Source: Escherichia phage vB_EcoP_KAW1A4500. From it: DNA of 44,241 bases. The position numbers were made by a program, and so were the translations under genes. Each line of letters begins with the position of its first letter. Position 1 is the stretch's first letter. The stretch lies in sequence record MK373773.1. The stretch is one strand, 5' to 3'. A model generated the notes under the pieces. It made no database searches. It was not told where the DNA came from and saw nothing but the letters and a program-made list of their open reading frames with translations. This document shows positions 2,955-43,629 of the stretch, in pieces.

Positions 2955-3839
2955 ATGACTACTGAAAACACCCTCCTGTCTGTCCGCGAAGCTGCAACCG
3001 CTGAGATTAAGCAGCATTTGGATAATATCGGCACTTCTTACATCAAAGTAGGTGCTTGTCTGAATGAGTTACGCGGAGACTTCGAAGGTCAAAAAGAGTT
3101 CTTAGCCTATGTTGAAGCAGAGTTCGGCATCAAGAAAGCACAATGCTACAAGCTGATGAGTGTAGCCCGTGTCTTTGAAGGTGACGAACGATTCAAAGGC
3201 GTGGCTATGCGTGTAATGCTGGCGCTTGTTCCTTTCGCTGATGAGAGTATCATCATGGAGAAGGCCGCAGAACTTGCCGCAGAGGGCAAGCTGGACACTA
3301 ACGCCGTAAACGCCCTAATTGAGTCTAAGAAAGAGCCAAAGGCCGAGACGGTACAATCTAAGGCTGAGCCAGTAAAACCGCAGGAGAACGCGGCTGAGGC
3401 CGCAGAATCACAGGAAACGCAAGCGCCGCAGGTAGTGCCGCCAATGAGTGAGCCGGACACCGACGAATCCGCACAGTGGGAGGGCGAAAGCAAGCCGGAA
3501 GCACCTAAGGCTGCGCCTCTGGACAACACTGCTAACACAGAGAACGCCGCCATGGCTGGCCTGTTGGCACAAATTAAGGCACTGACTGAGCAATTACAGG
3601 CGGCTAACGACCGCATCGCAGCTCTAACCAGTGCACGTGAAAGCAAGAAGGCAGCCGCGCCTATGCTCCCACAATTCAAATCCAAATGTTTCTATGCTCG
3701 CTTGGGTTTGAGTGCTGAGGAGGCAGAGAAGAAAACAGCAGTGAACAAGGCACGCCGCGAACTGGTTAAACTGGGATACGGTGAAGGCCATGAGGCATGG
3801 CCCTTAATCTCTGAGGCAGTAGAAGAATTAACTAAGTAA
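2955..3839 (+). CDS. Early protein of unknown function (294 aa): HTH-like N-domain, Pro/Glu/Ala-rich linker, coiled-coil C-domain
   Basis: ORF track 2946..3839 with ATG at 2955; sits where T7 has gene 0.7 but shows no kinase-like sequence. Confidence 0.65.
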   Translation: MTTENTLLSVREAATAEIKQHLDNIGTSYIKVGACLNELRGDFEGQKEFLAYVEAEFGIKKAQCYKLMSVARVFEGDERFKGVAMRVMLALVPFADESIIMEKAAELAAEGKLDTNAVNALIESKKEPKAETVQSKAEPVKPQENAAEAAESQETQAPQVVPPMSEPDTDESAQWEGESKPEAPKAAPLDNTANTENAAMAGLLAQIKALTEQLQAANDRIAALTSARESKKAAAPMLPQFKSKCFYARLGLSAEEAEKKTAVNKARRELVKLGYGEGHEAWPLISEAVEELTK

Positions 3840-3902
3840 CCTTATCGGTGGCATCTTCTTAGGTGTCACCTATTAAGGTTTCTTTCACTAGGAGTAAACA
3901 AG

Positions 3903-6528
3903 ATGCAAGACCTACACGCTATTCAACTTCAACTTGAAGAAGAAATGTTTAACGGCGGTATCCGTCGCTTTGAAGCGGACCAACAACGCCAGATTGCATC
4001 CGGTAATGAATCAGACACGGCATGGAATCGCCGTTTATTGTCCGAGTTAATCGCGCCAATGGCTGAAGGTATTCAGGCATACAAGGAAGAGTATGAAGGT
4101 AAAAGAGGCCGTGCACCGCGTGCATTAGCTTTCATTAACTGCGTAGAAAACGAAGTGGCAGCATATATCACGATGAAAATCGTTATGGATATGCTGAATA
4201 CAGACGTTACCTTACAAGCAATCGCTATGAATGTAGCGGACCGCATCGAAGACCAAGTACGTTTTAGCAAGCTGGAAGGTCACGCAGCTAAGTACTTTGA
4301 GAAAGTGAAGAAGTCGCTTAAGGCTAGCAAGACTAAATCTTATCGTCATGCGCACAACGTAGCGGTAGTAGCTGAGAAATCTGTTGCTGACCGTGACGCG
4401 GATTTCTCCCGTTGGGAGGCATGGCCTAAAGATACCTTGCTACAAATCGGTATGACCTTGCTAGAAATACTGGAAAATAGTGTATTCTTCAATGGTCAGC
4501 CTGTCTTTCTTCGCACCTTGCGCACTAATGGTGGCAAGCATGGCGTTTACTACTTACAGACCAGTGAACACGTAGGGGAATGGATTACAGCATTTAAAGA
4601 ACATGTAGCGCAACTTAGCCCGGCTTATGCACCTTGCGTTATACCTCCGCGTCCGTGGGTTTCTCCTTTTAATGGCGGTTTTCACACTGAGAAGGTAGCA
4701 AGTCGTGTGCGTCTTGTTAAAGGCAGCCGTGAACGTCCGCAAGCTGACCAAAAAGCAAATGCCAGCGGTTTACAAGGCTGTTAACGCTTTGCAGGCGACT
4801 AAATGGCAGGTTAACAAGGAAGTTTTACAGGTTGTTGAGGACGTAATACGGCTTGATTTAGGCTATGGCGTACCTTCCTTCAAACCACTCATCGACCGCG
4901 AGAACAAGCCAGCTAATCCGGTGCCGTTAGAGTTCCAGCACCTGCGAGGCCGTGAACTGAAAGAAATGTTAACACCGGAACAATGGCAAGCCTTCATCAA
5001 CTGGAAAGGTGAATGCACCAAGCTGTATACCGCTGAGACTAAGCGCGGCAGCAAATCGGCGGCGACCGTCCGCATGGTAGGGCAGGCCCGTAAATACAGC
5101 CAATTTGACGCAATATACTTCGTGTATGCTCTGGACAGCCGCAGCCGCGTCTACGCGCAATCTAGCACGCTCTCTCCGCAATCAAACGACTTAGGCAAGG
5201 CATTGCTCCGTTTTACCGAAGGGCAGCGTCTTGATAGCGCTGAGGCGCTTAAGTGGTTTTTGGTGAACGGGGCTAATAACTGGGGTTGGGATAAGAAAAC
5301 TTTTGACGTGCGCACCGCTAACGTGCTGGATAGTGAATTTCAAGACATGTGCCGCGACATTGCAGCGGATCCGCTGACCTTCACTCAATGGGTAAATGCC
5401 GACTCCCCTTACGGCTTCCTTGCATGGTGCTTTGAATATGCGCGTTATCTGGATGCACTGGATGAAGGCACGCAAGACCAATTCATGACGCACCTCCCAG
5501 TCCATCAAGATGGTAGTTGTTCTGGTATCCAGCACTACAGTGCTATGCTACGCGATGCAGTAGGTGCGAAAGCGGTAAACCTTAAGCCCTCTGACTCACC
5601 TCAAGATATTTATGGTGCCGTTGCGCAGGTAGTAATTCAGAAGAATTATGCATACATGAATGCAGAGGATGCGGAAACCTTCACTTCTGGCAGCGTGACT
5701 TTAACAGGTGCAGAACTTCGTAGCATGGCTAGTGCGTGGGATATGATAGGAATCACTCGCGGCCTGACCAAAAAGCCTGTAATGACACTACCTTATGGCA
5801 GCACACGTCTAACCTGCCGTGAATCAGTGATTGATTATATCGTTGATTTGGAAGAAAAAGAGGCCCAACGGGCTATTGCGGAAGGGCGTACCGCCAATCC
5901 TGTACATCCTTTTGATAATGACCGCAAAGACAGCCTGACACCTAGCGCAGCTTATAACTATATGACAGCTTTAATCTGGCCTTCTATTTCGGAAGTGGTT
6001 AAAGCTCCTATAGTGGCAATGAAAATGATTCGTCAGCTTGCACGTTTCGCAGCTAAAAGAAACGAAGGCTTAGAATATCCCTTACCAACTGGCTTCATCT
6101 TGCAACAAAAGATAATGGCTACCGATATGCTCCGCGTATCCACTTGCTTGATGGGTGAAATCAAGATGAGTCTCCAGATTGAAACAGATGTAGTTGATGA
6201 AACGGCAATGATGGGTGCGGCTGCTCCTAACTTCGTCCATGGTCACGATGCTAGCCACCTGATTCTGACTGTATGTGACCTAGTGGATAAAGGTATTACA
6301 TCCATTGCAGTCATCCATGATTCTTTCGGTACTCATGCAGGACGTACCGCAGACCTGCGGGATAGCTTAAGGGAAGAAATGGTTAAGATGTATCAAAACC
6401 ATAATGCCCTGCAAAATCTGCTAGATGTGCACGAAGAGCGTTGGTTAGTAGACACCGGAATCCAAGTACCAGAGCAAGGAGAGTTTGACCTTAACGAAAT
6501 CTTAGTTTCAGACTATTGTTTCGCATAA
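3903..6528 (+). CDS. Phage single-subunit DNA-directed RNA polymerase (SP6-type), interrupted by an apparent frameshift near 4734
   Basis: Two overlapping ORFs (3903..4784 and 4705..6528) together give an RNAP of about 874 aa; N-terminus [19 protein letters not shown] and palm motifs ([21 protein letters not shown]) match SP6-type RNAP as recalled. Confidence 0.9.
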
Positions 6529-6535
6529 TATTAAT

Positions 6536-6564
6536 AGGCCATTCCTTAGGGAGTGGCCTTTTTC
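6536..6564 (+). terminator. Intrinsic terminator after RNA polymerase gene (early terminator)
   Basis: AGGCCA/TGGCCT 6-bp stem with internal pairing followed by TTTTT, 8 bp after the RNAP stop. Confidence 0.6.
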
Positions 6565-6602: not shown

Positions 6603-6618
6603 GTCTCACATGTGAGAC
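6603..6618. promoter_or_regulatory. Perfect 16-bp palindrome GTCTCACATGTGAGAC (family copy 1)
   Basis: Perfect dyad; 2 bp upstream of promoter P1. Family copies at 6794, 9103, 10261, 15203, 31645. Confidence 0.7.
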
Positions 6619-6620
6619 TT

Positions 6621-6643
6621 ATTTACCGGACACTATAGGATAG
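6621..6643 (+). promoter_or_regulatory. Phage RNAP promoter P1 (ATTTACCGGACACTATAGGATAG), variant
   Basis: Matches the genome-wide SP6-type consensus at the GGACACTATAG core; positional analogue of T7 phi1.1A. Confidence 0.65.
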
Positions 6644-6659
6644 CCGTCGGAGACGGGAA

Positions 6660-6790
6660 AGAAAGGGAAGATAAAGGATATAAAGGAAGTAATAGGTATT
6701 AAAGGTTATATAGGTTATCTAGGAACACCTAGGAATACCTATTACCTTCTTCCTTCCTCTTATTACCACTTAGAGGAAGGGCAGACCTAG
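6660..6790. other. AT/purine-rich TAGG-repeat element with dyad symmetry; candidate primary replication origin
   Basis: Repeats of TAAAGG/TATAGG/CCTAGG between two tandem phage promoters, downstream of the RNAP gene and upstream of gp1.1-like and primase genes, as at the T7 primary origin (analogy is inference). Confidence 0.4.
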
Positions 6791-6793
6791 GTT

Positions 6794-6809
6794 GTCTCAC
6801 ATGTGAGAC
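6794..6809. promoter_or_regulatory. Perfect 16-bp palindrome GTCTCACATGTGAGAC (family copy 2)
   Basis: Identical to copy 1; 5 bp upstream of promoter-like P2. Confidence 0.7.
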
Positions 6810-6814
6810 TTCGT

Positions 6815-6837
6815 ATTTACCGGACAGTATAGATAAG
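6815..6837 (+). promoter_or_regulatory. Phage RNAP promoter-like P2 (ATTTACCGGACAGTATAGATAAG), degenerate
   Basis: 19/23 match to consensus, with a C-to-G change in the core; positional analogue of T7 phi1.1B. Confidence 0.45.
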
Positions 6838-6995: not shown

Positions 6996-8084
6996 ATGGC
7001 TATTATTCAGAACGTACCGTGTCCTGCCTGTCAAAAGAATGGACATGATATTACTGGCAACCATCTTATGATATTTGAGGATGGCGCTGGTTACTGCAAC
7101 CGTGGTCACTTCCATGATAACGGCAAGCCTTATTACCATAAGCCAGAGGGTGGCATCGAGATAACCGAATTACCTATTACTGGCAATATCAAATATACAC
7201 CTTCTCAGTTTAAAGAGATGGAGAAGGAAGGGAAGATTAGTGACCCTAAGCTACGCGCCATCGCACTTGGTGGTATGCGTATGAAAGACCGTTGGGAGGT
7301 CATGAATGAGCAAGAAAGGGCAGAACAAGAAGCAGAGTGGAAACTTGATGTTGAATGGTTCCTCACGCTCAAGCGTAAGAACCTTGTATCCCGTCACATT
7401 CGAGGTGACATCGCAGCAATGTACGATGTGCGCGTTGGACACGATGAAGAGGGAAGAGTCAACCGTCACTATTATCCACGATATGAAAAGGGTGTGCTTG
7501 TTGGAGCAAAATGCCGGACGTTGCCGAAGGATTTTAAGTTCGGACACCTAGGTAAACTCTTTGGTATGCAAGACCTTTTCGGTATGAACACTTTGTCTCA
7601 CGTGTTAGACAAGGGAAGACGAAAGGATTGCTTGCTTATTGTGGGCGGCGAACTGGATGCACTAGCAGCACAGCAGATGCTCCTTGATTCTGCCAAGGGT
7701 ACTAAGTGGGAAGGCCAGCCTTACCATGTATGGTCTGTCAATAAAGGTGAGTCTTGCCTTGAAGAGATAGTGCAGAACCGTGAGCATATCGCCCAATTCA
7801 AGAAGATTATATGGGGTTTTGATGGAGATGAGGTGGGGCAGAAGCAGAATCAGCAAGCGGCTCGCCTGTTTCCTGGCAAATCCTATATCCTTGAATACCC
7901 TTCTGGTTGCAAAGATGCTAACAAGGCATTGATGGCAGGGCTAAAGAGTTTGTTGATGCTTGGTTTAATGCCAAGTCATCTGATGAAGTCTTTGGTAGCC
8001 AGATTAAATCTATCGCATCTCAAAGGGATAAGCTCAAGGCTGCACGTCCAGAGCAAGGGTTATCATGGCCTTGGCCTAAGCTGA
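6996..8084 (+). CDS. DNA primase domain of a gene-4-like primase/helicase; ORF tail is out of frame
   Basis: N-terminal Cys4 zinc ribbon (CPACQ...CNRGH) and TOPRIM-like GFDGDE segment up to CKDAN; after about 7932 the homologous reading continues in another frame. Confidence 0.85.
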   Translation: MAIIQNVPCPACQKNGHDITGNHLMIFEDGAGYCNRGHFHDNGKPYYHKPEGGIEITELPITGNIKYTPSQFKEMEKEGKISDPKLRAIALGGMRMKDRWEVMNEQERAEQEAEWKLDVEWFLTLKRKNLVSRHIRGDIAAMYDVRVGHDEEGRVNRHYYPRYEKGVLVGAKCRTLPKDFKFGHLGKLFGMQDLFGMNTLSHVLDKGRRKDCLLIVGGELDALAAQQMLLDSAKGTKWEGQPYHVWSVNKGESCLEEIVQNREHIAQFKKIIWGFDGDEVGQKQNQQAARLFPGKSYILEYPSGCKDANKALMAGLKSLLMLGLMPSHLMKSLVARLNLSHLKGISSRLHVQSKGYHGLGLS

Positions 8085-8927
8085 ACAAGGTAACGCTAGG
8101 TATTCGTAAGAACCAGCTTATCATTGTAGGTGCAGGCTCTGGTGTAGGTAAGACTGAGTTCCTCCGCGAAGTGGTTAAACACCTCATTGAAGAGCACGGT
8201 GAATCTGTAGGCATCATTTCTACAGAAGACCCGATGGTCAAGGTGTCCCGTGCTTTTATCGGTAAGTGGATTGATAAGCGCATTGAGTTACCGCCAACCA
8301 ATGACCCGAAAGAAGACGGATACCGTGAGGTGTTCGACTACACCGAGGAAGAAGCTAACGCTGCCATTGATTATGTGGCTGATACAGGAAAGCTATTTGT
8401 GGCTGACTAGAAGGCGACTATTCTATGGAGAAGGTAGAGCAAACTTGCCTAGTTTGAGGCTATGGGCATTTCTAATATCATCATTGATAACTTAACGGGG
8501 ATTAAATTAGATGAGCGTGCTTTTGGGGAAGGTTGGTGCACTTGATGAATGCGTCAAACGAATTGGTACTATCAAAGACCGACATGCGGTTACGATTTTC
8601 CTTGTCTCTCACCTTACACGTCCTCCGGCAAACCGTACCCAACACGAAGAAGGTGGCGAAGTTATCCTTTCTGACTTCCGAGGCTCAGGCGCTATCGGAT
8701 TCTGGGCATCTTACGCCTTGGGATTGAGCGTAAGAGAACGCTTGATGAAAGGACTACCACGTACATCTCGTGTGTCAAAGACCGCGATCAAGGTATCTAC
8801 ACTGGAAAAGGTCATGCTTAAAGGTGACATTCAGACCGGACGTTTGATGGAACCACAAGCCCGTACTAAGTCATTTGATACAGTGAAGCAAGGCAGCAAG
8901 AGGTGCCTGATTTACCGGACACTATAG
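7922..8927 (+). pseudogene. Helicase domain of gene-4-like primase/helicase, split into at least three frame segments
   Basis: Walker A GAGSGVGKT in frame 2 (open 7922..8407), Walker B-like NIIIDNLTG in frame 2 (8453..8542), HEEGGEV...RGSGAI in frame 0 (8511..8927); stops in all three frames between 8404 and 8510. Confidence 0.8.
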
Positions 8928-8932
8928 AAGAG
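8910..8932 (+). promoter_or_regulatory. Phage RNAP promoter P3 (ATTTACCGGACACTATAGAAGAG)
   Basis: Near-perfect consensus 23-mer overlapping the 3-prime end of the helicase ORF. Confidence 0.8.
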
Positions 8933-8960
8933 AAAACTTTGAAGATGAACAGGAGTTTTA

Positions 8961-9086
8961 ATGGAAATTATTAAAAGTATTGATATCGGTATTGAGATTG
9001 TGATCAGATTATCACGATATGGATTCAAAGCGGTGAAAAATCTGGTTTTCTTATCAAATGTTCTTTATTGTAACACGCTTATCTAG
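8961..9086 (+). CDS. Small hydrophobic protein, hypothetical (41 aa)
   Basis: ATG at 8961 after AGGAG; first ORF downstream of P3; below ORF-track cutoff. Confidence 0.35.
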   Translation: MEIIKSIDIGIEIVIRLSRYGFKAVKNLVFLSNVLYCNTLI

Positions 9087-9102
9087 TGTATTTATCAGGG
9101 CT

Positions 9103-9120
9103 TGTCTCACACGTGAGACA
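9103..9120. promoter_or_regulatory. 18-bp palindrome TGTCTCAC-AC-GTGAGACA (family copy 3)
   Basis: Perfect 8-bp arms with 2-bp centre; GC-rich flanks extend the potential stem; intergenic. Confidence 0.7.
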
Positions 9121-9384
9121 GGCTTATTAAGTACATAAAAAATTGGAGATTGATTATGTATAATTAGTGCAGGTGATTATGTTCGTAACATCAATGCAAC
9201 CTCACGTAGATATCGTTGCCGTGGTACTAATGTAAGTGAAAACAGCTACTATGTAGAGTACAGTAATGGTATTAGACAGGCTTATCAAAAGGAATCAGCA
9301 CATAACTACCTTGAGAAGATTGGAGAGGTAAGCAATCAATGTAAGTGCGTACACGATGAGATTTGCGATAAGTGTGCCCGCCAG

Positions 9385-9816
9385 ATGCATAAAATGCTAT
9401 TATACCCTCTTCGCTATGGTGCTGGCATTCAAACCTTAGCAGAGGCATATGGCAAAGGTAAGACTACACTTAATAAAGATCGCCGCAATGTAATCACTAG
9501 TAAGACTCAAAGTGAAATGATTAAGCAATGTGGCACTGCACTAGGTGTTACGCAGTTTAACACTCGTGCTCTTGGTAAATCCACAGGACAAGCTATGGTG
9601 AAGATTGGTGAAGCCATGATGCACCCAAATGTACCTGTGCGAATCATGGATGTTGACCATGCAATCACAGAACACGGTACACCACGACGTGTAGCTAATA
9701 AGCATTTTGCCGACACTATAGAAGGTATTATCCGTAAGCAAGGGTTGAAAGGTCTTCACCTCTTGAATGGTGAAGAATTACTGTATCTCCCTATTGTTAC
9801 TGAAAAACCTACGTGA
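9385..9816 (+). CDS. Cys-rich protein, hypothetical; ORF may really begin at ATG 9156 (frame break at 9157-9165)
   Basis: ORF track 9385..9816; the same frame is open back to 9154 without a start codon, while a GGAG-preceded ATG at 9156 is one base out of frame. Confidence 0.5.
   Translation: MHKMLLYPLRYGAGIQTLAEAYGKGKTTLNKDRRNVITSKTQSEMIKQCGTALGVTQFNTRALGKSTGQAMVKIGEAMMHPNVPVRIMDVDHAITEHGTPRRVANKHFADTIEGIIRKQGLKGLHLLNGEELLYLPIVTEKPT
9703..9725 (+). promoter_or_regulatory. Weak internal phage-promoter-like site (GCCGACACTATAGAAGG core)
   Basis: Core GACACTATAGAAGG is exact; upstream recognition region has about 3 mismatches; lies inside the 9385..9816 ORF. Confidence 0.25.
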
Positions 9817-10052: not shown

Positions 10053-10251
10053 ACACAGCCTTAAGATGTTTGATGGTCACGAAGACCTGCAAGCACACAT
10101 CACTAACCAAGCCTTCCTGTTTGCACAGTTAACTATGGCTGAAGCAAAGAAGAATAGTCTGACACGTGAGCAGGTTATCAAGGAGGCAACTTGGGAGCCA
10201 CACCAAGGCAAATACATGGGCCAGAGATTTACTGTAACACGCAGTCGATAA
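10042..10251 (+). CDS. Hypothetical protein (69 aa)
   Basis: ORF track; overlaps previous stop; a T7 gp2-like role is possible by position but unsupported. Confidence 0.45.
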   Translation: MQNKHSLKMFDGHEDLQAHITNQAFLFAQLTMAEAKKNSLTREQVIKEATWEPHQGKYMGQRFTVTRSR

Positions 10252-10260
10252 GTAAAGGGT

Positions 10261-10278
10261 TGTCTCACACGTGAGACA
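10261..10278. promoter_or_regulatory. 18-bp palindrome TGTCTCAC-AC-GTGAGACA (family copy 4)
   Basis: Identical to copy 3; 10 bp after the stop of the 10042..10251 ORF. Confidence 0.7.
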
Positions 10279-10308
10279 GCCTTTCATCATATTGATTGGA
10301 GGTACATT

Positions 10309-13065: not shown

Positions 13066-13163
13066 TGCAAACTGCTTTTATCATTCTTGGGATCATATTA
13101 TTTATGGTAGTATTCTGGGCTTTCTCTGGCATTGACCCAGATTGTGATGGTAACTACGACTGA
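13065..13163 (+). CDS. Small membrane protein, hypothetical (32 aa)
   Basis: ATG overlaps the previous stop; hydrophobic core AFIILGIILFMVVFWAF. Confidence 0.3.
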   Translation: MQTAFIILGIILFMVVFWAFSGIDPDCDGNYD

Positions 13164-13231
13164 GTTATACTCAAGGTCACTTACGAGTGGCCTTTATGAA
13201 TAACTTATTCCTACTTATTTTGTCTAACATG

Positions 13232-14166: not shown

Positions 14167-14973
14167 ATGGCACGTGGTGATTTTGATTTTGGTGCTCAGG
14201 TTACTAAAGCTGAAGGTAAAGTATTTAAGAACCCTGAAGTTGGTGATCATGAAGCAGTAATCTCTGGCATCATTCATGTTGGTTCCTTCCAAGATATCTT
14301 TAAGAAAGGTAATACCACTGAAGTTAAGAAGCCAGCAAACTTTGTTCTTGTTAAGATTGTCCTGATGGGCGACGATGATAAGAACGAAGATGACTCTCGC
14401 ATGGAACAATGGATGGCTGTGCCTCTGAAGTCTGGTGATAAGGCAACACTAACTAAGTTCCTGAATGCAGTTGACCCTAAAGAGTTGCTGGGTGGCTTCG
14501 ATGATTTTATCGGTGAATGTCTGACTGCAACTATGGTTGGCTCTGGCGACAAGAATGATGATGGTACTTTCAAGTATGTTAACTGGAAAGGCTTTGGTGG
14601 TATGCCGGATAAGCTGAAGAAACTTGTCATTGCTCAGGTTGAAGAAGAGGGTCTGTCTATGACAGGTCATATTACCTTCGACAAGCTGACCAAAGAAATC
14701 CTTGATGATATTCCTGCTAACTTGGTGCGTCAATACTTCCTGAACGAGACGCCTCGTGGCAAGAACCTGTCTGTTGCTGGCTCTCACGTAGAAGCAATCA
14801 TCAAAGCTGCTCGTGAAGAAGACCCAGAGTGGAAGAAAGCTAAGAAGAAAGATGAAGAGGATGCCACTCCAGCTAATCGTAGATCTCTGGATACCGGCGA
14901 GTCTGTTCCACAGGAAGTACCTGAAGCGGAGGACAACCCTGCACCTGAAATGGATGAAGACGCGGAATACTAA
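14167..14973 (+). CDS. Hypothetical protein with acidic C-terminal tail (268 aa); possible gp2.5-like ssDNA-binding protein
   Basis: ORF track; AGGAG RBS; C-terminus ...EAEDNPAPEMDEDAEY is acidic with a terminal aromatic residue as in T7 gp2.5 (weak, inference). Confidence 0.6.
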   Translation: MARGDFDFGAQVTKAEGKVFKNPEVGDHEAVISGIIHVGSFQDIFKKGNTTEVKKPANFVLVKIVLMGDDDKNEDDSRMEQWMAVPLKSGDKATLTKFLNAVDPKELLGGFDDFIGECLTATMVGSGDKNDDGTFKYVNWKGFGGMPDKLKKLVIAQVEEEGLSMTGHITFDKLTKEILDDIPANLVRQYFLNETPRGKNLSVAGSHVEAIIKAAREEDPEWKKAKKKDEEDATPANRRSLDTGESVPQEVPEAEDNPAPEMDEDAEY

Positions 14974-15202: not shown

Positions 15203-15218
15203 GTCTCACGTGTGAGAC
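15203..15218. promoter_or_regulatory. 16-bp palindrome GTCTCAC-GT-GTGAGAC (family copy 5, centre inverted)
   Basis: Same 7-bp arms; starts 2 bp after the preceding stop and lies 15 bp upstream of P6. Confidence 0.7.
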
Positions 15219-15233
15219 AAATCGGTGTCCGGT

Positions 15234-15256
15234 ATTTACTGGACACTATAGAAGAG
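15234..15256 (+). promoter_or_regulatory. Phage RNAP promoter P6 (ATTTACTGGACACTATAGAAGAG)
   Basis: Exact consensus 23-mer. Confidence 0.85.
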
Positions 15257-15306: not shown

Positions 15307-15678
15307 ATGTTCAAGATTGAAACTATCGTAAACCGTGTTGTTAAAGGTGCTGCTCTGGTATCCGTTGAGTCTTTCATTATCGTCGATGAAGCTGATCAAC
15401 TGGTAGCTGGTACTAAGGCTTACGATACCCGTGAAGAAGCTCAGGCTAAGATTGACAGCATGGGTAACTTCGCTGCTGGTCTGGAGTTCGCTCGTGCTTG
15501 CTTCCCTGAGCAGGCTGACAAAGCCCAGATCGGGAAGGCTAACATCGTAGCTGAATATCTGGATTGGATTGCTGCTGGTAAACCAGTGAAAGAAGTTAAA
15601 GCTGCTGAAGAAGCTGAAGCTCCTGCAGTAGAAGTGTCTGCACCGGAAGCTCCGGTTAGCGAAGAGGAAGAGTTTTGA
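15307..15678 (+). CDS. Hypothetical protein with acidic C-terminal tail ending EEEEF (123 aa)
   Basis: ORF track; AAGGAG RBS; acidic tail ending in Phe recalls T7 gp2.5/gp4 polymerase-binding tails (inference). Confidence 0.6.
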   Translation: MFKIETIVNRVVKGAALVSVESFIIVDEADQLVAGTKAYDTREEAQAKIDSMGNFAAGLEFARACFPEQADKAQIGKANIVAEYLDWIAAGKPVKEVKAAEEAEAPAVEVSAPEAPVSEEEEF

Positions 15679-19063: not shown

Positions 19064-20007
19064 ATATCTTTGAGTTCCTAGGTCTTCCAGAAGATCACCG
19101 CAATCACCCATTCATGCTAGTGAAACATCGCGGTGAAGTCCCTGAGAAGAAACTTACTTTTCCATGTTATGCACAGGTGAAACGAGATGGTATCTTTTCT
19201 GCTGTTGCTGTTCGCACTGATGGTGTCGTTGGCATTTTTGGTCGCACTGGTAAGAAACTGGCAAACACTGAAGTCCTCGAACAAACATTTGCTACCTTTC
19301 CGGTTGGCATTTATCTTGGTGAGCTTCAGTCTATGGCCGTTGATATCTACCTTGAAGCTCTATCAGGGGTGGTAAATCCTAATCGTACAGAGCCGCTTGA
19401 CTTTATAGGCCAGCAGATTAAAGACAACCTGTATATCGACTTCTTCGATATGTTAACCATTAAGGCATTCCATGATGGATTCACTGATGTTTCTTATCTC
19501 AAACGTTACGATGCTTTACATCGTCGCATCGGCACTCATCTTAGCGGGTACAACGCTATCCTTCCTATTACTCCTTGCCATAATGAGCGAGAAGTTGAAG
19601 CGTTTGCGCAAGAGCAAATAGACGCAGGCCGAGAGGGTGCTGTGTTTAAGCTGGACTGTGATTATGAAGCAGGCCACAAAGGTTATCGTCAGACTAAAGA
19701 AGTCCGTAAGGTAACTTATGACCTTACTTGTATTGGCTTTGAAGAAGGCAAAGGTAAGTACAAAGGTAAGGTAGCTAACCTCATTTTCAAATGGAAAGGA
19801 GGCAAGACAATCAAAGCTATGTTAGGTAAAGGGTGGACTCATGCAGATGCAGAACAGATGTTCCACGACATTAAACATGGTGGACGATTGAATGTCATTG
19901 GTAAAATCTTTGAAGTAAAAGGTCTTCAGGATTCAAGCAAGGGCAACATTCGTCTGCCCAAAGCGGGAGAATTAAGACATGACAAAGATGAACCAGATTT
20001 CTTTTGA
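19060..20007 (+). CDS. ATP-dependent DNA ligase (315 aa)
   Basis: ORF track; adenylation motif I KxDG (AQVKRDGIFS) and ligase-like downstream regions. Confidence 0.78.
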   Translation: MNIFEFLGLPEDHRNHPFMLVKHRGEVPEKKLTFPCYAQVKRDGIFSAVAVRTDGVVGIFGRTGKKLANTEVLEQTFATFPVGIYLGELQSMAVDIYLEALSGVVNPNRTEPLDFIGQQIKDNLYIDFFDMLTIKAFHDGFTDVSYLKRYDALHRRIGTHLSGYNAILPITPCHNEREVEAFAQEQIDAGREGAVFKLDCDYEAGHKGYRQTKEVRKVTYDLTCIGFEEGKGKYKGKVANLIFKWKGGKTIKAMLGKGWTHADAEQMFHDIKHGGRLNVIGKIFEVKGLQDSSKGNIRLPKAGELRHDKDEPDFF

Positions 20008-20194
20008 TAGCATGAAGGCAACTCGTGCAGTTGAGGTAGCAGAAGCTATCTTTGAAACTTTATCCTGTGGCATGGAAGTGCCATATAACTTACTGGCGGA
20101 TGCAGAAGCGCTTGGTCTTTCTGTAGAAGCTATCCAAGAGAAGGTTGAGGAACTCTATGGTACAGACGAAGAAGAAACCGACGATTTCATTTGA
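19979..20194 (+). CDS. Acidic protein, hypothetical (71 aa)
   Basis: ORF track; GGGAG RBS. Confidence 0.45.
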   Translation: MTKMNQISFDSMKATRAVEVAEAIFETLSCGMEVPYNLLADAEALGLSVEAIQEKVEELYGTDEEETDDFI

Positions 20195-28680: not shown

Positions 28681-31628
28681 TGGCAATTGAGCGACAAGCA
28701 GTACAAGGTCTGCCACAAGTGCAGGCCACTTCTCCTAATGTCATGACCTTTGCACCTCAACAAGTGGGAGGTGTGGAGGCTGGCGTGGCTTCTACCTCCG
28801 GTAGTAGATTTATCGAAGACCTTATTCGTGCAGCAAGCAGCGTGGCTGATGTTACCACTGGTATCCTTAATCAGAAGATTGAGGAAGATAAGGTTATTCA
28901 AATGGAGCGGGCATATAATGGATTAATGCCTTCTGAGGATGCAACTCGTGGTGGCGCTCGTGCTAACATGCTTGTCAAAGCTCAACTGCTAGCTAATGAT
29001 GAAGCAGCACGAATGAAAGACATGGCTACTCGTTTCCAAGGAACGGATGATGAGTGGACACAACTTATGGTTGACTCTCGTAATGAGATGCAGAATAAGC
29101 TGTTCCAGCAATACCCTGAGTTGCAAGGTGACAAAGATACTATGCGTATGGTCACTAATGTCTTCCAAGAACAGCAGCCTCAGATTTGGGCTACACGAAC
29201 CCAGCATAAACTTGACCGTGAACAAGCAGACCGTGAGGATACCTTTGACGGGCGAGTGGCTTCTACTTGGGATTCTAATATTGACCCTGAAGCCTCTGGC
29301 TATGCTTTACAGGAACGAATCCGCGAAGGTCTTACTCAAGGATTACTACCTGAACAGATGCACAAGAAGTTAGTCCAGCGAGCAATTTCACTTGCACAAG
29401 GCGGTGATGTTAGCATGGCTGAAGCCCTGAAGTATGTGAAGGACGATAAGGGTGTTTCTGTTTATGCTAAGAATCCACAGCTTATCACAGCCATCACTAG
29501 TGGTAATGCAGTTTGGGCTAGGAATAATGTAGCTGATGTAACTCGTATGTCTTTCGAAGTTAAAGAATCCTACCTTGCAGGTGATTTAACTGATGAAGAA
29601 CTGTTGGAACGAGCACAGCACATTAATAATCTGACAGGTAACTCTGTCTTCTCTAATCCAGAGCTAGAGGCACTGATGCGCCAACGGGCTAAGCAGAATG
29701 CAGAGCTAGGTGCAATGCAGGATATGCGACGTGAGCTTTACTCCGACCGCCTGACTGGCTTCCAAGGTAAGACTGATAAAGAGAAGAAGGCTTACATTGA
29801 TGTTATCAAACAGGATAGCCAACTTTATGCAGACCAGCAAATCAAACAACGTGGCTTGGACCCTTACAGTCAAGAGGCTGAAGCTATTCGTGGTGCAGTG
29901 GAAGTGCAGCGCCTGCAATTCATGAACTCCAAAGGCTTAGTGGATGATACCTTTGAGTCTCGTATCAAAGCCATGGAATCTATGCTATCGCCTGAGCACT
30001 TTGCCAAGGGCGAACCACAGGAGTTGATGACTATTCGCCAGTTGTGGGAACAGTTGCCAGAAGAGAGCCGAGGTGTCTTTGGTGACACGGTGAATGGCTA
30101 CATGGATAACTACAACACTGCACTACAAATGGGAGAGACACCTTTGCAGGCTGCAAGGTTTGCGCGTGAAGCACAGCAGAAATTCTCTCGTACTGAGAAG
30201 GAAACCAAGAAGTTCAACTCAGCTATTGGAGATGCACTGGATGAGGTATCTGGTGCTGGCTGGTTTGATGGTAAAACCGAAGTGTCAGACTTAGGTAAAG
30301 CTATTGCGGAAGAAGAGTTACGAGCTAAGGCCAATATGTTGTGGTCTAGTGGTATGCGTAACATGGATTCTATCAAGAAGGCTTTAATTACTTGGGGCAA
30401 TAAACGCTACACTCAAACAGAGGATGCAAAGACTTCCGGTGGCTATTTCATTAAAGGTGATTACACTTCTGCATCTGATATGCTTATGTCAGTTGGGAAA
30501 GGCGTAAACCCTACCGATGTACCTCTGGCGCTTGGTAGGTATGTAGAAACACAGATGCCAGAATTGAAGAAGGAGCTTCAAGAGTGGGAAACTAAAGATG
30601 ATATATACATTGATTACAATGAACAGAAAGGAACTTTTGTGATTCGTGCTGGTGCAGCAGGTCGCCCTCTTTCTGGAGTAATCCCTGTAACTTCTTTGGA
30701 TACCACTTCACTACTGGATTCTGCCTATCAGAAGAAAGTAGAAGAACGAGATAAAGGCGAGTATGTTCACCCGTATCGTACAGATATTGGTGCACAAGAG
30801 CCTATGCCAGCTAAACCAACTGCCAAAGATATTGGTAAATTTGGACTAGCTAACTTCCTCATGTCTTCTGCTTTTGCTTCTGGTGAGAATCTACCTTCTA
30901 ACTTCGAGATTAACTATCGAGGTAATATGCAACAATTCTATGACAAGCTAGCTATGGATGAGAATAAAGATAAAGTTGGCTTTAATAAGGCAACTGGAAC
31001 CTTTACTCCATATAAAGACGCTCACGGTGAGTCTATCGGTTACGGTCATTTCTTAACGGAAGAAGAGAAGCGAAACGGGTATATTAAGATTGGCGATGAA
31101 CTAGTTCCCTATCGAGGGTCTATGTCTCAGCTTACAGAGAGTAAGGCTCGCGCTCTTATGGAGCAAGATGCTAAGAAGCATGTGCCTTCTACTCGTGACT
31201 GGAAGATTCCGTTTGACCAGATGCATCCTGCACAGCAACGTGGCTTGATGGATTTAACCTACAATTTAGGTAAAGGTGGAATCCAGAACTCACCGCGTGC
31301 TCTTGCTGCATTCAAAGCTGGTAAGCTTACGGAAGGCTTTATCGAAATGCTGGGCACTGCATCAAGTGAAGGTAAGCGTATTCCTGGCCTACTGAAGCGA
31401 CGCGCTGAGGCATACAATATGGCATCTGCTGGTGGTGTGCCTAAGATTACCGAAGTGGAGACTCGTGAAGATGGCTCCATGTGGGTTAGGTTTGGTGGAC
31501 CTATGCCAGCAGGTTCTGTCTCGGCATGGACTCATAAACGTATTGGCGCGGATGGTTGGTATCAGGTTTATGAGGCTGCACCTACCAAGTTAGCTAAAGG
31601 TTCTAAGGTAGGTAAAGTTAAGTTGTAG
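28680..31628 (+). CDS. Internal virion (ejection) protein with C-terminal lysozyme-like domain (982 aa)
   Basis: Large ORF in the internal-core position; C-terminal region (about 31020..31470) has a phage-lysozyme-like pattern GYGHFLTEEE...GLMDLTYNLGKGG. Confidence 0.75.
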   Translation: MAIERQAVQGLPQVQATSPNVMTFAPQQVGGVEAGVASTSGSRFIEDLIRAASSVADVTTGILNQKIEEDKVIQMERAYNGLMPSEDATRGGARANMLVKAQLLANDEAARMKDMATRFQGTDDEWTQLMVDSRNEMQNKLFQQYPELQGDKDTMRMVTNVFQEQQPQIWATRTQHKLDREQADREDTFDGRVASTWDSNIDPEASGYALQERIREGLTQGLLPEQMHKKLVQRAISLAQGGDVSMAEALKYVKDDKGVSVYAKNPQLITAITSGNAVWARNNVADVTRMSFEVKESYLAGDLTDEELLERAQHINNLTGNSVFSNPELEALMRQRAKQNAELGAMQDMRRELYSDRLTGFQGKTDKEKKAYIDVIKQDSQLYADQQIKQRGLDPYSQEAEAIRGAVEVQRLQFMNSKGLVDDTFESRIKAMESMLSPEHFAKGEPQELMTIRQLWEQLPEESRGVFGDTVNGYMDNYNTALQMGETPLQAARFAREAQQKFSRTEKETKKFNSAIGDALDEVSGAGWFDGKTEVSDLGKAIAEEELRAKANMLWSSGMRNMDSIKKALITWGNKRYTQTEDAKTSGGYFIKGDYTSASDMLMSVGKGVNPTDVPLALGRYVETQMPELKKELQEWETKDDIYIDYNEQKGTFVIRAGAAGRPLSGVIPVTSLDTTSLLDSAYQKKVEERDKGEYVHPYRTDIGAQEPMPAKPTAKDIGKFGLANFLMSSAFASGENLPSNFEINYRGNMQQFYDKLAMDENKDKVGFNKATGTFTPYKDAHGESIGYGHFLTEEEKRNGYIKIGDELVPYRGSMSQLTESKARALMEQDAKKHVPSTRDWKIPFDQMHPAQQRGLMDLTYNLGKGGIQNSPRALAAFKAGKLTEGFIEMLGTASSEGKRIPGLLKRRAEAYNMASAGGVPKITEVETREDGSMWVRFGGPMPAGSVSAWTHKRIGADGWYQVYEAAPTKLAKGSKVGKVKL

Positions 31629-31644
31629 TACCTAACTCAAGGCT

Positions 31645-31662
31645 TGTCTCACATGTGAGACA
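31645..31662. promoter_or_regulatory. 18-bp perfect palindrome TGTCTCACATGTGAGACA (family copy 6)
   Basis: Between the two large internal virion protein genes; flanked by GGCT/AGGTC, extending the potential stem. Confidence 0.7.
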
Positions 31663-31692
31663 GGTCTTTATGATAGGCACTATGGAGGAATT

Positions 31693-40586: not shown

Positions 40587-40659
40587 AGTCTGCTTCAGTA
40601 AACCTGACGCTACAAAATTGGGTCTGTACATTCTCTCGCTAGAACGCGGATATAATTAA
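40462..40659 (+). CDS. Putative o-spanin (Rz1-like) lipoprotein (65 aa)
   Basis: Internal ATG of ORF 40378..40659; signal peptide plus lipobox MLATILLIGSLITSGC; Pro-rich mature region. Confidence 0.5.
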   Translation: MLATILLIGSLITSGCQTALPENPKVKPLKPTLTAVYEVDDRVCFSKPDATKLGLYILSLERGYN

Positions 40660-40688
40660 TACATAGTTTTATGTATCAGTGTCTTACG

Positions 40689-41126: not shown

Positions 41127-41193
41127 GCACTGCTTTTCGCGCAACTTTTCTTAAAGGTTATCATGATGGTAGCCTTTCAGAAAAGGAGGTTAC

Positions 41194-43629
41194 ATGATTC
41201 AAAGACTAGGTTCTTCATTAGTTAAATTCAAGAGTAAAATAGCAGGTGCAATCTGGCGTAACTTGGATGACAAGCTCACCGAGGTTGTATCGCTTAAAGA
41301 TTTTGGAGCCAAAGGTGATGGTAAGACAAACGACCAAGATGCAGTAAATGCAGCTATGGCTTCAGGTAAGAGAATTGATGGTGCTGGTGCTACTTACAAA
41401 GTATCATCTTTACCTGATATGGAGCGATTCTATAACACCCGCTTCGTATGGGAACGTTTAGCAGGTCAACCTCTTTACTATGTGAGTAAAGGTTTTATCA
41501 ATGGTGAACTATATAAAATCACGGATAACCCTTATTACAATGCTTGGCCTCAAGACAAAGCGTTTGTATATGAGAACGTGATATATGCACCTTACATGGG
41601 TAGTGACCGTCATGGTGTTAGTCGTCTGCATGTATCATGGGTTAAGTCTGGTGACGATGGTCAAACATGGTCTACACCAGAGTGGTTAACTGATCTGCAT
41701 CCAGATTACCCTACAGTGAACTATCATTGTATGAGTATGGGTGTATGTCGCAACCGTCTGTTTGCCATGATTGAAACACGTACTTTAGCCAAGAACGCAC
41801 TAACCAATTGTGCATTGTGGGATCGCCCTATGTCTCGTAGTCTGCATCTTACTGGTGGTATCACTAAGGCTGCAAATCAGCGTTATGCAACAATCCATGT
41901 ACCTGATCACGGATTATTCGTGGGCGATTTTGTTAGCTTCTCTAATTCTGCGGTAACAGGTGTAACTGGTGATATGAAAGTTGCAACAGTTATAGATAAG
42001 GACAACTTCACGGTTCTTACAGCCAATCAGCAGACCTCTGATTTGAACAATGCTGGAAAGAATTGGCACATGGGTACTTCCTTCCATAAGTCTCCATGGC
42101 GTAAGACAGATCTTGGCCTGATACCTCGTGTCACTGAAGTTCATAGCTTTGCTACTATTGATAACAATGGCTTTGTTATGGGTTATCACCAAGGCGACGT
42201 AGCTCCACGCGAAGTTGGTCTTTTCTACTTCCCTGATGCTTTTAACAATCCATCTAATTATGTTCGTCGTCAGATACCATCTGAGTACGAACCGGATGCT
42301 GCAGAGCCATGCATCAAGTACTATGACGGTGTGTTATACCTTATCACTCGTGGTACTCGTGGTGACAGGCTTGGAAGCTCTTTGCATCGCAGTAGAGATA
42401 TAGGTCAAACTTGGGAGTCACTAAGATTTCCACATAATGTGCATCATACTACTTTACCGTTTGCTAAGGTAGGAGATGATCTTATTATGTTTGGTTCAGA
42501 ACGTGCAGAAAATGAATGGGAAGCAGGTGCACCTGATGATCGTTACAAGGCATCTTATCCCCGCACCTTCTATGCACGATTGAATGTAAACAAGTGGAGT
42601 GCAGATGACATTGAATGGGTTAACATCACAGACCAAATCTATCAGGGTGACATTGTTAACTCCAGTGTAGGTGTAGGTTCGGTGGTAGTTAAAGACAGTT
42701 ACATTTACTATATCTTTGGTGGTGAAAACCATTTCAACCCAATGACTTATGGTGACAACAAAGATAAAGACCCATTTATTGGACATGGACACCCTACTGA
42801 TATATACTGCTATAAGATGCAGATTGCAAATGACAGTCGTGTATCTCGTAAGTTTACATATGGTGCAACTCCTGGTCAGGCTATACCTACTTTCATGGGT
42901 ACTGATGGTATTCGTACTATTCCTGCTCCACTTCACTTATCAGGAGAGGTAGTTGCCGCAGATATGACTGTAGAACATCTTACCCTGAAGGCGAGTACAA
43001 GTGCTAATATTCGCTCAGAGATGCTGATGGAAGGTGAATATGGGTTCATTGGTAAGACTATACCAACGGATAACCCAACCGCACAACGTGTTATCATCTC
43101 GGGTGGAGAAGGTACAGCAGCAGATAAAGGTGCTCAGATTACCCTACATGGAGCAGGTTCTAGTACTTCTAGACGCGCAGTGTATAATGCCAATGAGCAC
43201 TTGTTCAAAAGTGGGGCTATCATGCCATACAACGATAACCTGTACCCTGCTGGCGGTCCTCATAATAGATTCACCACTATCCATCTTACAAGTGACCCTA
43301 TTATTACATCGGATGCCACTCATAAGTATGGCTCACAAGGTATTGATGAGAGTGTACTAAAGGCATGGGGTAAGGTTGCCTTCAAGCAGTACAAGTTGAT
43401 TGGCGAGATGTCTCGTGGTGTGCATCACACTCACTTTGGTGTATTGGCACAAGACATTGTAGCTGCTTTTGCATCCGAAGGGTTAGATGCAATCGACTTC
43501 GGCATTGTCTCCTTCGAAGAAGGTCAGTTTGGTGTTAGATATAGTGAAATCTTAATCTTGGAGGCTGCTTATACTCGCTATCGTTTAGACAAGTTAGAGG
43601 AGATGTATGCCACTAATAAAAGCAGTTAA
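41194..43629 (+). CDS. Endo-N-acetylneuraminidase (endosialidase) tailspike, 811 aa
   Basis: Two Asp-box sialidase motifs (SGDDGQTW, SRDIGQTW); N-terminus MIQRLGSSLVKFKSKIAG...GAKGDGKTND and 811-aa length match K1E/K1-5 endosialidase as recalled. Confidence 0.88.
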   Translation: MIQRLGSSLVKFKSKIAGAIWRNLDDKLTEVVSLKDFGAKGDGKTNDQDAVNAAMASGKRIDGAGATYKVSSLPDMERFYNTRFVWERLAGQPLYYVSKGFINGELYKITDNPYYNAWPQDKAFVYENVIYAPYMGSDRHGVSRLHVSWVKSGDDGQTWSTPEWLTDLHPDYPTVNYHCMSMGVCRNRLFAMIETRTLAKNALTNCALWDRPMSRSLHLTGGITKAANQRYATIHVPDHGLFVGDFVSFSNSAVTGVTGDMKVATVIDKDNFTVLTANQQTSDLNNAGKNWHMGTSFHKSPWRKTDLGLIPRVTEVHSFATIDNNGFVMGYHQGDVAPREVGLFYFPDAFNNPSNYVRRQIPSEYEPDAAEPCIKYYDGVLYLITRGTRGDRLGSSLHRSRDIGQTWESLRFPHNVHHTTLPFAKVGDDLIMFGSERAENEWEAGAPDDRYKASYPRTFYARLNVNKWSADDIEWVNITDQIYQGDIVNSSVGVGSVVVKDSYIYYIFGGENHFNPMTYGDNKDKDPFIGHGHPTDIYCYKMQIANDSRVSRKFTYGATPGQAIPTFMGTDGIRTIPAPLHLSGEVVAADMTVEHLTLKASTSANIRSEMLMEGEYGFIGKTIPTDNPTAQRVIISGGEGTAADKGAQITLHGAGSSTSRRAVYNANEHLFKSGAIMPYNDNLYPAGGPHNRFTTIHLTSDPIITSDATHKYGSQGIDESVLKAWGKVAFKQYKLIGEMSRGVHHTHFGVLAQDIVAAFASEGLDAIDFGIVSFEEGQFGVRYSEILILEAAYTRYRLDKLEEMYATNKSS

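Follow-up and report, generated by a model that had tools for sequence, protein, structure and literature searches.

What reads a short palindrome that recurs, with unchanged arms, at several intergenic sites of a phage genome, and is it read as DNA or as RNA? The question is raised by the DNA of Escherichia phage vB_EcoP_KAW1A4500 (MK373773.1), which was analysed at its full length of 44,241 nucleotides (hereafter the window). A search for GTCTCAC-N0-10-GTGAGAC retrieves six sites, at 6603, 6794, 9104, 10262, 15203 and 31646, the same six that an initial annotation of the sequence had listed, while 100 dinucleotide-preserving shuffles contain no match. The 7-mer GTCTCAC occurs 16 times in the window, compared to 5.8 +/- 2.4 expected occurrences. 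From the comparisons described below we consider it probable that these palindromes are parS/OB-like duplex-DNA binding sites of the phage's own protein gp6, the product of gene 6 (2955-3839, + strand; 294 residues), for which a helix-turn-helix (HTH) domain of the ParB/KorB type is predicted.

The unit common to all copies is 16 bp long and consists of the 7-bp arms GTCTCAC and GTGAGAC and a 2-bp centre. A form that is extended to 18 bp by T...A (TGTCTCAC...GTGAGACA) is restricted to three of the six copies. Of the size initially given, 16-18 bp with a centre of 2-4 bp, only the 16-bp core is general, and the centre is 2 bp. It is always a purine followed by a pyrimidine in the window (AT, AC or GT; GC is also seen in relatives). 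As some copies have AC or GT, only those with AT are strictly perfect palindromes, a term that had been applied to all of them. The AT centre is found in copies a (6603-6618), b (6794-6809) and g (31646-31661), the AC centre in copies d (9104-9119) and e (10262-10277), and the GT centre in copy f (15203-15218). The count of six proved to be incomplete: two degenerate copies had been overlooked, one near the left end (copy L, GTCTCAC-AT-GTTAGAC, 581-596) and one within the primase/helicase coding sequence (copy H, GTCTCAC-GT-GTTAGAC, 7595-7610, + strand), as had a half-copy, GTCTAACATG (13222-13231), which directly adjoins the phage promoter at 13232 on its upstream side.

All six perfect copies lie just after the end of a gene, as had been noted before, and the reported proximity of three of them to phage promoters could be confirmed. 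Copies a, b and f are free-standing and are each followed by an SP6-type promoter, at 6621 after 2 bp, at 6815 after 5 bp and at 15234, where the promoter matches the consensus, after 15 bp; copy a is also located 3′ of an intrinsic terminator (6536-6559). Sites precede the middle-region promoters (6621, 6815, 13232, 15234) but not the late promoters (23483, 38347, 40689). The other three copies are found at the apex of extended RNA hairpins: copy d 3′ of the primase/helicase gene (hairpin 9086-9136), copy e between gene 11 and the next gene (hairpin 10242-10298), and copy g in a T7-type RNase III hairpin (31626-31682).

The window represents a Vectrevirus, K1E/K1-5-like and belonging to the SP6 group, with 96% identity to a K1E isolate across 4 kb. 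It was compared to K1-5, K1E, SP6, Proteus phage Pm5460, Klebsiella phages K44PH129C1 and Kp7, Pectobacterium phage POP72, Erwinia phage Era103 and 20 IMG/VR loci. The palindrome is present at the same syntenic sites in all of these relatives, among them SP6, K1E and K1-5, where a search for the same motif and positions had been proposed. The arms, which were said to be identical in every copy, are indeed so within this genome, but relatives have other types. GTCTCAC (TC) is typical for Vectrevirus and Era103, GTCCAAC (CA) for the Klebsiella, Proteus and Pectobacterium phages and others, and GTCTAAC (TA) is mostly found in hybrids and dominates in the SP6 lineage. Almost every copy within one genome has the same arm type. 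Relatives without exception have an R-Y centre, or R-N-Y in the case of the Proteus phages; this set is closed under reverse complement, and the orientation at a given site is not conserved. GTCTCAC-RNY-GTGAGAC occurs in 6-7 copies in Vibrio phages VEN and phi-A318 and in Pseudomonas phage Nerthus, all of them Colwellvirinae, and because the GTCTCAC arms are shared with these phages the element predates the subfamily. Two further phages have palindromes of their own, GTCTAGT-RY-ACTAGAC in ECBP5 and GTTCGAG-AT-CTCGAAC in Marinomonas phage CB5A.

The left-end copy is located upstream of the first promoters in relatives, with a host-type TTGACA promoter 10-40 bp downstream in most of those examined (e.g. 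K1-5, K44 and the IMG/VR locus L019), and it occurs there as a hybrid of allowed half-sites (TC/TA, TA/TC). Palindrome copies also adjoin promoters in Era103, Pm5460, VEN and Nerthus. A search of Rfam returned no family for any copy, and literature searches with the exact sequences and for SP6-like regulatory elements yielded no description of the palindromes, although an earlier mention in Dobbins 2004 or Scholl 2004 is possible. Lone palindromes of GTCCAAC type occur in three genomes of GTCTCAC type (K1-5 at 9570, CrRp3 at 3222 and the locus L015 at 17412), and in K1-5 the foreign-type site coincides with a different downstream gene. Such single copies of foreign type are likely marks of recombination junctions between phage modules.

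The arm type goes together with a single residue of gp6. Residue 66 of this protein was compared to position 5 of the half-site across about 35 genomes. In the gp6 motif KAQCY-X-LM, X is Lys in every genome with GTCTCAC arms, which represent five lineages (Vectrevirus, Era103, VEN, phi-A318, Nerthus), and either Asn or His wherever position 5 is A (GTCCAAC/GTCTAAC). ECBP5 and CB5A, which have different palindromes, also have different recognition helices. In L037, a close relative, gp6 is 86% identical yet has Asn at position 66, and the left arm of the left-end site on this contig is GTCCAAC within nearly identical flanks. When contigs were chosen by the gp6 residue alone, two new ones agreed with the prediction, and a third proved to be L026, a contig already counted. 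Judged from these alignments, the co-variation of residue 66 with half-site position 5 appears to be perfect across relatives.

The gp6 gene, which is encoded just 5′ of the RNA polymerase (RNAP) gene, specifies an early protein and is conserved in all compared phages. It has been annotated as "hypothetical" until now, and its assignment to the ParB/KorB type is new. The initial annotation had called the product of 2955-3839 HTH-like, and computation assigns an HTH domain of the ParB/KorB fold to its N-terminal part, beginning about 25 residues from the N-terminus, with residues 61-74 as recognition helix. In an AlphaFold2 model of residues 1-128 (predicted local distance difference test score 83), Lys66 is located in the second helix of the HTH. 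In the full-length model, this domain is followed by a disordered acidic linker, a helix of 44 residues and a small C-terminal helical domain. The long helix may be a dimerising coiled coil, and gp6 probably forms a dimer through it. Exact arm conservation had originally been taken to suggest, as the first of three options, a dimeric DNA-binding protein, and gp6, as the predicted reader, supports this with its HTH, its long helix and the co-variation of residue and half-site. The C-terminal segment (window 3600-3839, YARLGLSxEEA...KAxRELVKLGYGxGHEAW) looks J-domain-like by eye; it is devoid of HPD and has no Pfam match at E 10.

Helicase, DNA polymerase, gp16, gp18, gp11, gp17, gp25 and gp28 were screened for alignment columns that track the arm type, and none or only isolated ones were found. 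Phage RNAP was considered as a reader and rejected: the residue aligned to T7 N748 is Ser/Ser/Phe in GTCTCAC genomes and Arg/Lys in GTCCAAC genomes, but Nerthus and phi-A318 break this pattern by combining GTCTCAC with Lys. The mosaic contig L019 was compared to the window for narrowing down the reader gene, but with about 78% identity to everything it did not discriminate.

Copies that are located within genes indicate that the arm sequence itself is under selection. In the helicase gene, CA-type genomes have a perfect GTCCAACGTGTTGGAC, which encodes the peptide LSNVLDK, while Vectrevirus has GTCTCACGTGTTAGAC (LSHVLDK), so that in copy H of the window the peptide S-H-V-L-D replaces the S-N-V-L-D of CA-type genomes. 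All nucleotides that are free to approach the TC arm have changed in the Vectrevirus copy, including those responsible for the change of Asn to His and for the breaking of a pair, and for the one nucleotide that remained unchanged, the change to a full TC arm would create a TGA stop. The same solution, GTCTCACGTGTTAGAC, is found in the RNAP and ligase genes of Era103. In the RNAP gene of VEN, VSNVLD is replaced by VSRCET, which holds a perfect 19-bp copy. Both the in-gene and the left-end copies have evolved one half-site at a time and tolerate changes that break a pair (C.U, A.G), and the arm sequence is thus apparently selected above base pairing. Evolution by half-site, together with the closed set of R-Y centres and with a copy upstream of the first promoters, argues for a symmetric reading of duplex DNA.

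The proposed sites resemble those of ParB-type proteins in several respects. The parS consensus is TGTTNCACGTGAAACA with half-sites GTTTCAC/GTTCCAC (PMC7022226). The phage site is likewise a palindrome of two 7-bp arms with several copies dispersed over the replicon, and its arm GTCTCAC agrees with half-parS GTTTCAC at six of seven positions. However, the phage arms are 2-3 bp further apart, a ParB/Srx CTPase domain was not detected in gp6, dimerisation is probably by a coiled coil rather than by a ParB C-terminal domain, and the replicon is that of a strictly lytic phage of the T7 supergroup, which has no obvious need for partition. E. coli has no chromosomal par genes (PMC7022226), which implies that the reader must be encoded by the phage. 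KorB of the IncP plasmid RK2 is a global repressor of the ParB family that acts on many short palindromes, both promoter-proximal and distant (PMC11790492). The gp6 sites also represent one short palindrome in many copies, some of which adjoin promoters. KorB differs in being a CTP-dependent sliding clamp that works with KorA, whereas gp6 has neither a CTPase domain nor a known partner, and repression, which is known for KorB, would be an assumption for gp6. Many copies of a short motif, either protein-binding or a stem-loop, in short intergenic regions of phages and often next to promoters are also a feature of the stoperators of mycobacteriophages and of the T4-type PeSL cassettes, for which a block of transcription or the marking of module boundaries has been proposed as function. 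A stoperator is a 13-bp site without symmetry that is bound by the repressor of a temperate phage. PeSL combine a promoter with a stem-loop and have no known dedicated reader, and neither of the two is known to involve a ParB-type fold.

We propose that a gp6 dimer binds to the palindrome, with one 8-bp half-site, GTC-Y-M-AC-R, for each of its monomers. Position 5 would be read by residue 66, with Lys recognizing C (G on the other strand) and with Asn or His recognizing A in relatives, and the central purine-pyrimidine step would suit a symmetric or indirect readout. The sites would have been placed where a compact genome tolerates a 16-bp palindrome, i.e. upstream of promoters, inside a few genes and at the apices of RNase III hairpins. 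Once bound, gp6 may act as a KorB-like regulator that, from many sites, insulates or shuts down early/middle transcription units, or may organise this part of the genome.

The three hairpin-borne copies require a closer look, as they are the ones for which a function in RNA would be expected. Copies at 9104, 10262 and 31646 cap hairpins of 22-24 bp that consist of a lower stem of 9 bp, a conserved asymmetric internal loop and an upper stem of 12-14 bp, with folding z-scores of -7.7, -7.3 and -5.3, respectively. Lower and upper stems have 9 and 12 bp around the internal loop in hairpin d (9086-9136, + strand) and 9 and 13 bp around an asymmetric internal loop in hairpin e (10242-10298, + strand). 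In hairpin g (31626-31682, + strand), the flanks ACUCAAGG...CUUUAUGAU are identical to those of T7 R0.3, R1.1 and R18.5. Compensatory changes across relatives occur in both stems of all three hairpins, at 5 pairs in d and as double changes at 10 of the 24 pairs in e. We considered the T7 RNase III sites R0.3, R0.5, R1, R1.1, R1.3, R4.7, R6.5 and R18.5 and built a covariance model from seven of them; R6.5, which was left out of training, is recovered by the model. It scores site g with 27.7 bits (E 1.3e-4) in the window and with 36-46 bits in relatives, while site e is a marginal match (19.1 bits, E 0.027). Copy 6603 obtains 9.6 bits at E 9.8, and no match is reported for site d (9104). The hairpins of d, e and g thus share their architecture of lower stem, asymmetric loop and upper stem with the T7 sites, but their upper stem is 3-4 bp longer through the inserted palindrome, and the palindrome also occurs without an RNase III hairpin (copies a, b and f, the left-end and in-gene copies, and all copies of Era103). 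Site g of Era103 is a canonical RNase III hairpin that is devoid of the palindrome, and T7 R6.5 similarly carries a DNA signal, the promoter phi6.5, in its apex. For these reasons the palindrome seems to be a separable add-on in a permissive spot and not a part of the RNase III signal. Of the RNA-processing site that had been suggested, the hairpins hosting 9104, 10262 and 31646 are retained, while the palindrome itself is not such a site. These predictions extend T7-type RNase III processing sites to SP6-like phages and depict the hairpin apex as a parking place for DNA signals. A canonical palindrome-free site of this type (ACUCAAGGUCACUUACGAGUGGCCUUUAUGAA) was found at 13162-13213 (+ strand; 55.2 bits, E 4.6e-12), where it provides the unmodified reference for the hairpins that host the palindrome, and is conserved in K1-5 and SP6; weaker candidates from the same model are located at 3836-3889, 41146-41196, 2043-2096 and 2887-2937.

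It could still be argued that the palindrome acts on the transcript throughout, as a conserved mini-hairpin of RNase III signals or as a site for an RNA factor, and thereby affects how the mRNA is processed, how stable it is or how the downstream gene is translated. Besides the stable and co-varying hairpins of d, e and g and their matches to the T7 model, such a role would account for flank extensions with G.U pairs that are valid only on the + strand, and for the SP6 lineage, where a U.G pair is found at arm position 4 of six sites in one orientation. Yet the free-standing copies a, b and f do not fold better than shuffled sequence (z about 0), and they form, like the copies at 581 and 7595, hairpins of only 6-7 bp, too short for the approximately 20-bp RNase III architecture. 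A left-end copy upstream of the first promoters, in-gene and left-end copies that take up pair-breaking changes in order to fit the arm type, and the core-less hairpin of Era103 are also difficult to reconcile with it, and both the R-Y centre and the link to gp6 residue 66 are left unexplained, so that we regard a function on the transcript as unlikely. Somewhat less plausible still is that there is no dedicated reader, and that the palindromes are short shared homologies at module boundaries which are kept identical by recombination or gene conversion and serve merely as hot spots of mosaic exchange. Sites do occur at module junctions: the K1-5 gene 3′ of site e differs from that of K1E, with a core of the foreign CA type at this place, CrRp3 and L015 each have single cores of foreign type, and copies a and b flank a module of promoter and inverted repeat that is missing from Era103, where the two palindromes are 35 bp apart. 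However, 16 bp with unrelated flanks are a poor substrate for conversion, and the in-gene copies have changed at three separate nucleotides while skipping the stop-creating one between them, which is impossible for a contiguous tract. Furthermore, GTCTCAC has been kept across phages of Vibrio, Pseudomonas, Erwinia and E. coli with proteins that are only 40-60% identical, and the perfect link to a protein residue is left unexplained.

A pause or termination signal that is read by phage RNAP, as had been suggested initially, or an ordinary terminator is the least credible explanation, and we give it hardly any weight. The copy at site d is labelled as rho-independent terminator in the annotation of Proteus phage Pm5460, a simple scan flags 6603 and 6794 as weakly terminator-like, and the RNAP residue aligned to T7 N748 at first seemed to track the arm type. 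On the other hand, the next promoter begins with ATTTAC and accounts for the T-rich tails of 6603 and 6794, which are absent from CA-type relatives; 9104, 10262 and 15203 are not flagged; and the N748 correlation does not survive the comparison to Nerthus and phi-A318. None of the palindrome copies combines a G+C-rich hairpin with an immediate U run, and the real terminator after the RNAP gene is the separate hairpin at 6536-6559. Resemblances to the boxes of CRP, LexA and TyrR were also considered and dropped, as was the GTC recognition of T7-type primases, since SP6 primase reportedly uses GCA. A resemblance of the palindrome to the phage promoter was dropped as well, as no consistent register was found.

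Several observations weigh against gp6 as a parS/OB-type reader of these sites. A comparison of gp6 to Pfam, NCBIfam and PDB sequences yielded nothing significant, with a faint DUF3102 match for one homolog (E 0.04), and the N-terminal CTPase domain of ParB was found neither with Pfam nor with NCBIfam, and no GERRxRA box is visible in the alignment. A ParA-like gene is not among the annotations of K1-5, K1E or relatives, where no search aimed at ParA was made. The heptamers are 2-3 bp wider apart than in parS, and spacings of 16 and 17 bp coexist, sometimes in one genome (Pm5460). The independent switches of residue 66 are few (from Lys to Asn at the ingroup base; a return to Lys in Vectrevirus; the L037 variant; ECBP5; CB5A), and foreign-type sites have been kept in Lys-type genomes (K1-5 9570, CrRp3 3222). 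Finally, six or more sites of the SP6 lineage have T on the 5′ arm only, corresponding to a U.G pair on the transcript, and this asymmetry is expected of an RNA hairpin and not of a symmetric dimer. An RNA constraint would explain it, but so would C-to-T mutation with a strand bias if the reader accepts either pyrimidine at position 4.

As to the function of gp6 binding, we favour a KorB-like control or insulation of early/middle transcription, a role that is weakly inferred from the analogy to KorB and from the placement of the sites and that is much less certain than the assignment of the sites themselves. More tentatively, gp6 and its parS-like sites could form a KorB-/VirB-like global switch that SP6-like phages (Molineuxvirinae, Colwellvirinae) inherited from their common ancestor. 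Such a switch might time the shut-off or insulation of early/middle transcription, counter silencing by the host nucleoid, or organise replication origins, and on several occasions during evolution the specificity for all of its sites would have been changed by a single Lys/Asn exchange in the recognition helix. It may stand in for circuits like those of T7, which include gp0.7, gp2 and lysozyme. Close relatives have a lysin of the M15 peptidase type, while the RNAP-inhibiting lysozyme of T7 is an amidase and thus of a different kind; for this reason the phages of this group may lack the lysozyme switch and may need another one. Together, the palindromes and gp6 as their probable reader suggest a previously unrecognised regulatory system common to two subfamilies of T7-like phages. 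SP6, K1E and K1-5 are classic phages, the sources of widely used RNA polymerases and candidates for phage therapy. If gp6 is indeed of the ParB/KorB type and controls a regulon of 8-10 sites, it would be a sequence-specific DNA-binding regulator of a kind so far not known from the T7 supergroup. The Lys/Asn-to-C/A co-variation would then provide a natural, testable specificity code for the ParB-type HTH, and the sites could serve engineering as orthogonal operator/repressor pairs beside SP6-type promoters.

The region around copies a and b has further features. Directly 3′ of the RNAP gene is a strong intrinsic terminator (6536-6559; AGGCCATTCC-TTAG-GGAGTGGCCT followed by TTTTTCTTT), and host RNA polymerase probably uses it as early terminator. 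Within 6638-6793, the RNA made from the 6621 promoter first forms a small hairpin, CCGUC...GACGG, and then contains a purine-rich tract that pairs with its pyrimidine-rich complement in a long hairpin (-44 kcal/mol). This module is located between two tandem promoters just 3′ of the RNAP gene, which is the place of the primary replication origin in T7. It is missing from Era103, where only the two flanking palindromes are kept.

Three genes of the window are disrupted. Two parts of the RNAP gene (3903-6528) lie in different frames, with the break at about 4732, the primase/helicase gene (6996-8985) is split relative to K1-5 at about 7934 and again around 8526-8882, and gene 10 starts with ATG TAT AAT TAG, i.e. 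with a stop after three codons (9156). These breaks represent either sequencing/assembly errors or a defective genome.

The C-termini of gp16 (14167-14973), gp18 (15307-15678), gp25 (19979-20194) and the primase/helicase are acidic tails with a terminal aromatic residue (...EY, ...SEEEEF, ...EEETDDFI, ...DEEQEF). They resemble the DNA-polymerase-binding tails of T7 gp2.5 and gp4. For gp16, a weak match to "replication initiation protein" was obtained (19 bits, compared to a cutoff of 75), but its acidic C-terminal tail suggests a replisome protein more like those of the single-stranded DNA-binding type, and it may be the unannotated protein of this class.

A second conserved palindrome, ATACATA-N4-TATGTAT, occurs at 40659-40676, with 12 bp between it and the tailspike promoter (40689) downstream. 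SP6 (39880) and K44PH129C1 (4302) have this palindrome as well, and its motif differs from that of the GTCTCAC element.
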